Positions 1-814 of a stretch of 814 nucleotides of DNA are shown here, one piece after another. The translations under genes and the position numbers were made by a program. The first letter of the stretch is position 1. Each line of letters opens with the position of its first letter. The notes below the pieces were generated by a model. It was not told where the DNA came from and made no database searches. It saw only the letters and a list, made by a program, of their open reading frames with translations. This DNA comes from a phage. The stretch lies in the sequence record KC755108.1. One strand, 5' to 3'.

Positions 1-25
1 TATATTGTTTAATCTTCTTTATCAT
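1..25 (-). other. Window-start segment where the gp23 translation diverges (probable 1-nt deletion near 23-25, and about 13 nt at 1-13 not recognisable as gp23)
   Basis: The core frame reads ...ALLFQM IKKIKQY. gp23 as I recall it continues LLFQ-IDKEAVEIARQ. The coding strand cag atg ata aag aag matches cag atT gat aaa gaa g (Q I D K E) if one T is restored, but the remaining ...attaaacaatata gives D-stop in that frame and does not resemble the expected continuation. Confidence 0.4.
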
Positions 26-727
26 CTGGAACAGTAAAGCTTTGAAGCTTTCACCAGCCCAACGAGCACCACGGATATCAATCGGGTCCTGGAAGTCAAA
101 CACACCAGCTTTAGCGCCAACGGTGTTGGTCATACCAGATTTACCAACCTGTGCGGAGTAGTTAATCCAATCGATAACTTCGCGGTTGATTTCCAGCATA
201 ATTTCGGTAGCCAGAATACCACTCAATTCGGCATCAGCATCCATACCGTGAACAGCGCGGAGGTCCTGTGCCAGTTCGATGGAGTAGCTTGCTTTCAGCT
301 GACGGGATTTAGCTTCGATAACTTGTTTGTCGATGCGGAAGCCCATTTCGTTCCACGGGTTATCAGAGGAACCGTTAAAACCTTCTTGCAGTTCGGCGAT
401 GGAGGTAGCCATACCTTCAGCGATTTCTGCCAGCTGACCAGCTTCGAGCAGTTTGGTAACTTCAGCGTCAAGTTTAGCAGCATCAGTAGCACCAGCATCA
501 ACGGTTACAGCTTCAACAGCCTGGTAGTGTGCGGAACCGGTTGCTTCGAAGAAGTGAGAATAAATTTTACCAACTTCCAGAACTTTGCTTGCAGCCAGTG
601 CTTCAAAAGTCTGAGCAGCGCCCTGACCAGAGAACATAGCGTTCGGAGCATACATCGGATGGAAAGCTTCTTTAGCACCAGCAGCGACAGGGTCTTTACC
701 GTATACTGCACGCAGTGCAAATACCTG
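2..727 (-). CDS. 23: Major capsid protein, T4-type (gp23 family), internal fragment; open at the window start (no stop codon in window), 5' side interrupted by a frame break at about 727-729
   Basis: Hand translation of the minus strand in the frame whose codons occupy + positions 3k+2..3k+4 gives no stop from 727 down to 2. Read N to C it starts QVFALRAVYGKDPVAAGAKEAFHPMYAPNAMFSGQGAAQTFEALAASKVLEVGKIYSHFFEATGSAHYQAVEAVTVDAGATDAAKLDAEVTKLLEAGQLAEIAEGMATSIAELQEGFNGSSDNPWNEMGFRIDKQVIEAKSRQLKASYSIELAQDLRAVHGMDADAELSGILATEIMLEINREVIDWINYSAQVGKSGMTNTVGAKAGVFDFQDPIDIRGARWAGESFKALLFQM... Long blocks match T4 gp23 as I recall it from memory (not a database search). Codon usage is that of a highly expressed gene (GCT, GGT, CGT, CTG, AAA, GAA preferred). 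Confidence 0.92.
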
Positions 728-729
728 GG
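727..729 (-). other. Apparent single-nucleotide insertion (extra G in a GGG run on +; extra C on the coding strand) breaking the gp23 reading frame
   Basis: The coding strand reads ccg act ggc C cag gta ttt. PTG is in one frame and QVF in the next, with one surplus base between them. Removing one base from the run restores a continuous ...NNPTGQVFALRA... matching gp23. Confidence 0.7.
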
Positions 730-806
730 CCAGTCGGGTTGTTCAGAGGCTGTACGCCACAAATATCAAACGCAATCAGATGCGGGATAGCACGCCGCAC
801 AACCCC
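729..806 (-). CDS. 23: 5'-proximal segment of the same gp23-family capsid gene, in a different reading frame from the core (frame shifted by one nt at about 727-729)
   Basis: Minus-strand codons occupying + positions 3k..3k+2 translate, N to C from 806 down to 729, as GVVRRAIPHLIAFDICGVQPLNNPTG. This matches the gp23 region immediately upstream of QVFALRAVYGKDP (T4, as I recall: MVRRAIPNLIAFDICGVQPMNSPTG). In the core frame the same bases read through to TGA at 743-745. An in-frame TAG at 807-809 ends this segment on its upstream side. Confidence 0.8.
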
Positions 807-809
807 CTA
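803..809 (-). other. Second apparent single-nucleotide insertion with an in-frame TAG (807-809) in the upstream gp23 segment
   Basis: The coding strand reads tg tta tag ggg gtt gtg cgg cgt gct. Deleting the A at +808 gives gtt atg ggg gtt gtg (VMGVV; T4 has VMGMV as I recall). Deleting one G from the 5-nt G run (+803..807) gives gtt ata ggg gtt gtg (VIGVV). Either way one extra base is present. Confidence 0.55.
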
Positions 810-814
810 TAACA

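Follow-up and report, generated by a model that had tools for sequence, protein, structure and literature searches.

Nature of the sequence

The 814-nt stretch of phage DNA analyzed here, referred to below as the window, encodes on its minus strand an internal part of gp23, the T4-type major capsid protein, and as written the reading frame of this gene is broken. Does the broken frame record a capsid gene in decay, or did it arise when the sequence was determined? A preliminary description of the window had preferred the second reading, that of a single-pass read with degraded ends, and had kept as the alternative a capsid gene in decay, perhaps in a domesticated remnant. We conclude, with a probability that we put at about 0.93, that the window is a single unedited Sanger read of a g23 amplicon obtained from a T4-like coliphage with the primers Mzia1 and CAP8, and that its disruptions are artifacts rather than decay of the capsid gene.

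A megablast search of 50,697 phage records with the window matched 987 of them. The best matches listed were to Gaprivervirus coliphages, with P896 (OL451225) first and 212, PSD2001 and P479 following; identity to P896 was 97.9% over window positions 14-813 and 98.7% over the clean core, window 26-786. SP18 and vB_EcoM-VR7, at 95.8% and 94.8% nucleotide identity, were both more distant in this search than P896, 212 and PSD2001. Every match listed covered window 14-813, with 799 bases of the subject aligned to 800 bases of the query. For closer comparison the window was aligned with P896 and with the corresponding region of 13 relatives, of which nine were GenBank genomes, three were IMG/VR contigs and one was a metagenome contig. 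In the relatives P896 and T4, g23 is located between g22 (scaffold) and g24 (vertex). A search of Rfam with both strands of the window at E <= 1 gave no match, and a window-specific central 35-mer had 0 matches in IMG/VR.

As written, the window does not carry gp23 in a single uninterrupted frame; the homology is split over two frames and does not extend into the last 25 nt. When the two single-base indels described below are undone, by taking one base out and putting one in, 258 uninterrupted gp23 codons result, with 2 amino acid differences from P896, and at both positions the residue of the window is also present in other relatives. The corrected 258-aa translation matched the Pfam Gp23 profile (PF07068) with 205.8 bits against a gathering cut-off of 24.4 (E = 1.7e-60), and matched the T4 gp23 chains 6UZC, 5VF3 and 8T9R of the PDB over residues 103-360 with E about 1e-144. 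The phage-derived part of g23 occupies window 14-786 on the minus strand, corresponds to T4 gp23 residues about 103-360, and is a natural allele of the Gaprivervirus type.

Location of the disruptions

By comparison with the 13 relatives, anomalies are confined to window positions 1-25, 727-729 and 795-814. The first 13 nt (plus strand, 1-13) are unalignable, since only 3 of the 13 bases match the expected GCGATTTCAGCGG, which is the chance level, and in the search of phage records these positions were covered by none. A 1-nt deletion follows at 24-25, where the plus strand has a single A in place of the AA common to all the relatives (the sense-strand TT of the codons ATT GAT); at this site 47 nt of the query are aligned to 48 nt in all the top phage matches. 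A 1-nt insertion is found at 727-729, with GGG in place of the GG seen in 13/13 relatives, and across it the gp23 homology changes reading frame. Finally, the region 795-814 has one base inserted and five bases substituted, and its terminal base is mismatched as well. Three of these substitutions and the inserted base make up a garbled stretch at 801-808, which yields an in-frame TAG stop, and the further differences, at 795, 798 and 814, lie outside this stretch. The sequence of this divergent end was found in no phage record.

The rest of the window is strikingly regular. In the 769-nt core from 26 to 794, the extra C at 729 is the sole base that is not shared with at least one relative, and 89 of 89 polymorphic core columns in the 13-relative alignment carry a state found in some relative. 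At least 24 of the 25 columns unique to the window fall within its outer 5.5%, for which the chance probability is about 1e-29. The preliminary description had placed the disruptions at the ends of the window and called the center intact, and on this point it is borne out. It had also assigned all three to short homopolymer contexts. An association of this kind does exist, but it carries little weight, as 47% of the bases in the g23 segment sit in runs of two or more; furthermore, the third disruption is no simple homopolymer indel and must be withdrawn from that class, because it sits inside the sequence of a PCR primer (see below).

The switch of frame at 727-729 could also be read as a programmed ribosomal frameshift or other recoding site in g23, a proposal that would account for the shift itself and nothing more. 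In 13/13 relatives, and in the best 30 of the 987 phage matches, the extra base is lacking and gp23 is encoded in one frame, so that the shift would be unique to the sequence of the window. Since the extra base occurs in no relative, a conserved programmed frameshift is excluded, and we regard recoding at this site as the least probable of all the explanations considered here.

Primer sequences and amplicon boundaries

The reverse complement of the window starts TGTTATAGGGGGTTGTGCGGCGTGCTAT, which we took to be similar to the classical g23 diagnostic primer Mzia1. The pair to which this primer belongs was then confirmed verbatim in PMC4229321, which gives Mzia1 as 5'-TGTTATIGGTATGGTICGICGTGCTAT-3' and CAP8 as 5'-TGAAGTTACCTTCACCACGACCGG-3'. 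Both primers match T4 g23 perfectly, at sites 845 nt apart, and in 13/13 relatives the two sites are also 845 nt apart; the segment is thus one without natural length variation. With up to 3 mismatches allowed, an ungapped search of the window did not match Mzia1, because of the 1-nt insertion in the primer stretch, and the site becomes visible in a gapped alignment.

Sequence derived from Mzia1 occupies window 787-814 (minus strand), as the primer complement at the run-off end of a read, with the inosines of the primer represented by G in the sense strand. Positions 787-800 and 809-814 match the Mzia1 complement exactly, and only 801-808 is garbled. The last base of the window, 814, corresponds exactly to base 1 of the Mzia1 site as located in the 13 relatives and in T4. 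Where the primer and the genomes differ, the window follows the primer in 3 of 3 cases. Position 814 is the T of the primer (sense strand) and is A in 13/13 relatives; positions 798 and 795, which are both of the unambiguous inosine positions, are G in the sense strand and T in 13/13 relatives. G is the base expected in the sense strand at such positions, since inosine is copied as C. At the opposite end, the window opens 8 nt past the 3' end of CAP8, which makes the unalignable bases nt 9-21 past that primer, and the window is antisense to g23. Taken together, the boundaries, the primer-specific bases and the antisense orientation indicate that the window is a CAP8-primed run-off read of the Mzia1-CAP8 amplicon. 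The TAG stop and all the differences at 795-814 therefore sit in primer-derived sequence and are uninformative on the phage genome. It should be noted that the 8-nt garble at 801-808 is unaccounted for by the primer sequence, and that base-calling error is needed there as well.

Two further readings of the ends of the window were considered and rejected. The differences at 795, 798, 801 and 804 have a 3-nt spacing that resembles wobble-position divergence in a real divergent allele; two of these positions are inosines and the rest lie in the garbled stretch. For the AT-rich positions 1-13, which in the sense strand would read 'MIKKIKQY', an intron, a homing endonuclease insertion or a chimeric junction was rejected because the segment is only 13 nt long, comprises nt 9-21 of the read, and is followed by homology that resumes in the register of the amplicon.

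The CAP8 site itself (P896 2321-2344) varies within the genus. The primer has 1 mismatch (GAA to GCA, Glu to Ala) to g23 in most of Gaprivervirus; from the VR20-like and metagenome alleles it differs at 3 bases, of which two lie close to its 3' end. Judging from these mismatches, the Mzia1/CAP8 diagnostic PCR may under-detect part of Gaprivervirus.

Origin of the window as a single read

The following series of events would produce the window. An 845-bp piece of g23 from a Gaprivervirus-type coliphage would have been amplified with Mzia1 and CAP8, and the product sequenced once, from the reverse primer CAP8, which would give an antisense read. Such a read would open 8 nt past CAP8 with about 13 unreadable bases and would drop a base at about nt 32; a clean stretch of about 700 nt would follow, and then a spurious G at about nt 737 as resolution falls. 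The read would finally run off the template through the Mzia1 complement, where the inosines would have been copied as C and 8 bases miscalled. Beneath this primer-derived end, the genomic sequence would be expected to be AGTTATGGGTATGGTTCGTCG.

Dye-terminator chemistry typically leaves the first bases of a read unreadable, and in capillary Sanger dye-terminator reads roughly the first 20-40 bases and those beyond about 700 are unreliable. The deletion at 24 is about 32 nt, and the insertion at 727-729 about 737 nt, from the sequencing primer; both positions fall in these unreliable zones, and we have counted this toward miscalls. Both indels would thus almost certainly be base-calling errors, and the g23 gene of the phage itself is most probably intact.

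A published protocol follows the same course. According to PMC4229321, sequencing of a Mzia1 + CAP8 product relied on BigDye Terminator v1.1 and was done 'using reverse primer CAP8'; the source was a T4-like E. coli phage 'with 95% of homology' to vB_EcoM-VR7 (HM563683), and the sequence was deposited as KC755108. In a later paper, the phage of KC755108 is named ELY-1 and is a plaque-forming lytic phage still in use in 2021. The protocol and the VR7 percentage make this record (phage ELY-1) a candidate source of the window, the primer pair being one that is common to other laboratories as well.

Errors clustered at the ends, and indels beside short runs, are also produced by other platforms, and the window could in that case be a read or contig from 454, nanopore or short-read assembly with degraded ends, unconnected to the Mzia1/CAP8 amplicon. 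An origin of this kind is improbable, if somewhat less so than the other alternatives to be weighed. It does not explain why the edges of the window match the 5' end of Mzia1 to the base and lie 8 nt from the 3' end of CAP8, or why primer-specific bases are present, and with one error in the 769-nt core the sequence is much cleaner than a raw nanopore read would be. The earlier preference for a single-pass read with degraded ends is therefore upheld, and the primer boundaries, the primer-specific bases and the antisense orientation now give it a definite form.

Decay of the capsid gene as an alternative

If the sequence is taken at face value, g23 is truly disrupted, and the window would represent either a decaying pseudogene of a defective phage or a domesticated remnant. 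The frame disruptions and the in-frame TAG are indeed there in the sequence as written, and the single insertion at 727-729 could be real. The TAG and the differences at 795-814, however, sit in sequence that came from a PCR primer. Decay would scatter substitutions along the gene, but the 769-nt core has 0 substitutions unique to the window, and two single-base edits are enough to give back the 258 codons. Synonymous differences exceed non-synonymous ones in comparisons with the more distant relatives (20-25 against 5-8), the counts for the closest relatives being too small to judge. Thus, the alignment revealed neither lineage-specific substitutions spread over the gene nor relaxed constraint.

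Recurrence of the disruptions in independent data, which according to the preliminary description would have favored real pseudogenization, was not seen. A 24-mer spanning the frameshift had 0 exact matches in IMG/VR, in JGI metagenome contigs and in GTDB genome contigs; the same 24-mer without the extra base gave 3 + 1 matches and was absent from the GTDB genome contigs. A search for similar DNA in 5,426 complete E. coli genomes found none, and so gave no sign of a domesticated copy. In these collections, then, neither an independent sequence with the disruptions nor a host-resident copy came to light. If the source of the window is ELY-1 (KC755108), its continued propagation in 2021 as a plaque-forming lytic phage, as reported in the later paper, is a further argument against a decayed capsid gene. 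With no unique substitution in the core, a frame that can be restored and no copy in the E. coli genomes searched, we consider the suggestion of a decaying gene or domesticated remnant very improbable.

A narrower form of this alternative would treat the start and the end of the read as artifacts and accept only the extra G at 727-729 as real in the phage stock, a view to which we assign a chance as slight as that of gene decay, or a little slighter. The extra G could then belong, for instance, to a dominant g23 frameshift allele in a defective or interfering sub-population, rescued by co-infection or ribosomal slippage.

A single Sanger read with artifactual ends remains the preferred reading, and the significance of the window is one of data quality only. 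Untrimmed single-pass amplicon reads in databases retain primer sequence, bases read from inosines and low-quality ends, and these retained ends can mimic frameshifts, premature stops and pseudogenes in essential phage genes. Here, spotting the primer footprint averts a false claim that the capsid gene of a lytic phage is decaying. Apart from the indels at 24 and 727-729, the trustworthy phage sequence is the 773 nt of window 14-786.

Other features of the locus

A long open frame runs antisense to g23. On the plus strand, codon-aligned with g23, a frame at about window 37-790 is stop-free for 250 aa; the listed plus-strand ORF spans 248-790 (180 aa). The same antisense frame extends without a stop over 258 aa in 12 of the 13 relatives and over 205 aa in SP18. 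Stops in this frame arise only from the sense codons TTA, CTA and TCA, and if these are avoided in the codon-biased g23, as seems probable, an open shadow frame would result. The long ORF fits such a codon-bias shadow of g23, and no sign of a gene was seen.

The differences between the window and its relatives are unevenly distributed, being clustered at positions 138-464 of the reverse complement (window 351-677), with the remainder toward the 3' end of the gene almost invariant. The codon at window 365-367, for gp23 residue about 243 (T4 numbering), varies at each of its three bases among close relatives. It is TCT (Ser) in the window, 212, PSD2001, P479 and TH41, CAG (Gln) in P896, RZ, DK-13, SP18 and the VR phages, and ACT (Thr) in a metagenome contig. 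The allele of the window resembles a mosaic put together from known Gaprivervirus alleles.

In T4, the interval between g23 and g24 contains segD, a gene for a GIY-YIG homing endonuclease, on the opposite strand (6562-7233). The corresponding interval of P896 contains only a 93-aa hypothetical ORF, also on the opposite strand (2835-3116, minus), and this ORF could be a remnant or a small, unrelated gene.

Comparison with known systems

The corrected translation aligns from end to end with T4 gp23 (5VF3, 6UZC, 8T9R; PF07068), over residues 103-360. The difference lies in the origin and extent of the sequence, since T4 is a Tequatrovirus, whereas the window carries an internal fragment of a Gaprivervirus-type allele. 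With the g23 of Gaprivervirus, represented by P896, the likeness extends to 256 of 258 identical amino acids after the two single-base corrections. The missing base at 24, the extra base at 727-729, the unalignable 13-base start and the primer-derived end are, in contrast, the window's own, and occur in 0 of the relatives. As an amplicon, the window resembles the Mzia1/CAP8 product of PMC4229321 in its primer sites, 845-bp geometry, orientation, read start and E. coli host. The reference relative in that paper is VR7, whereas SP18 (95.8%) is slightly closer to the window in megablast; for VR7 itself, the '95%' given there for the phage compares with the 94.8% that we measured for the window.
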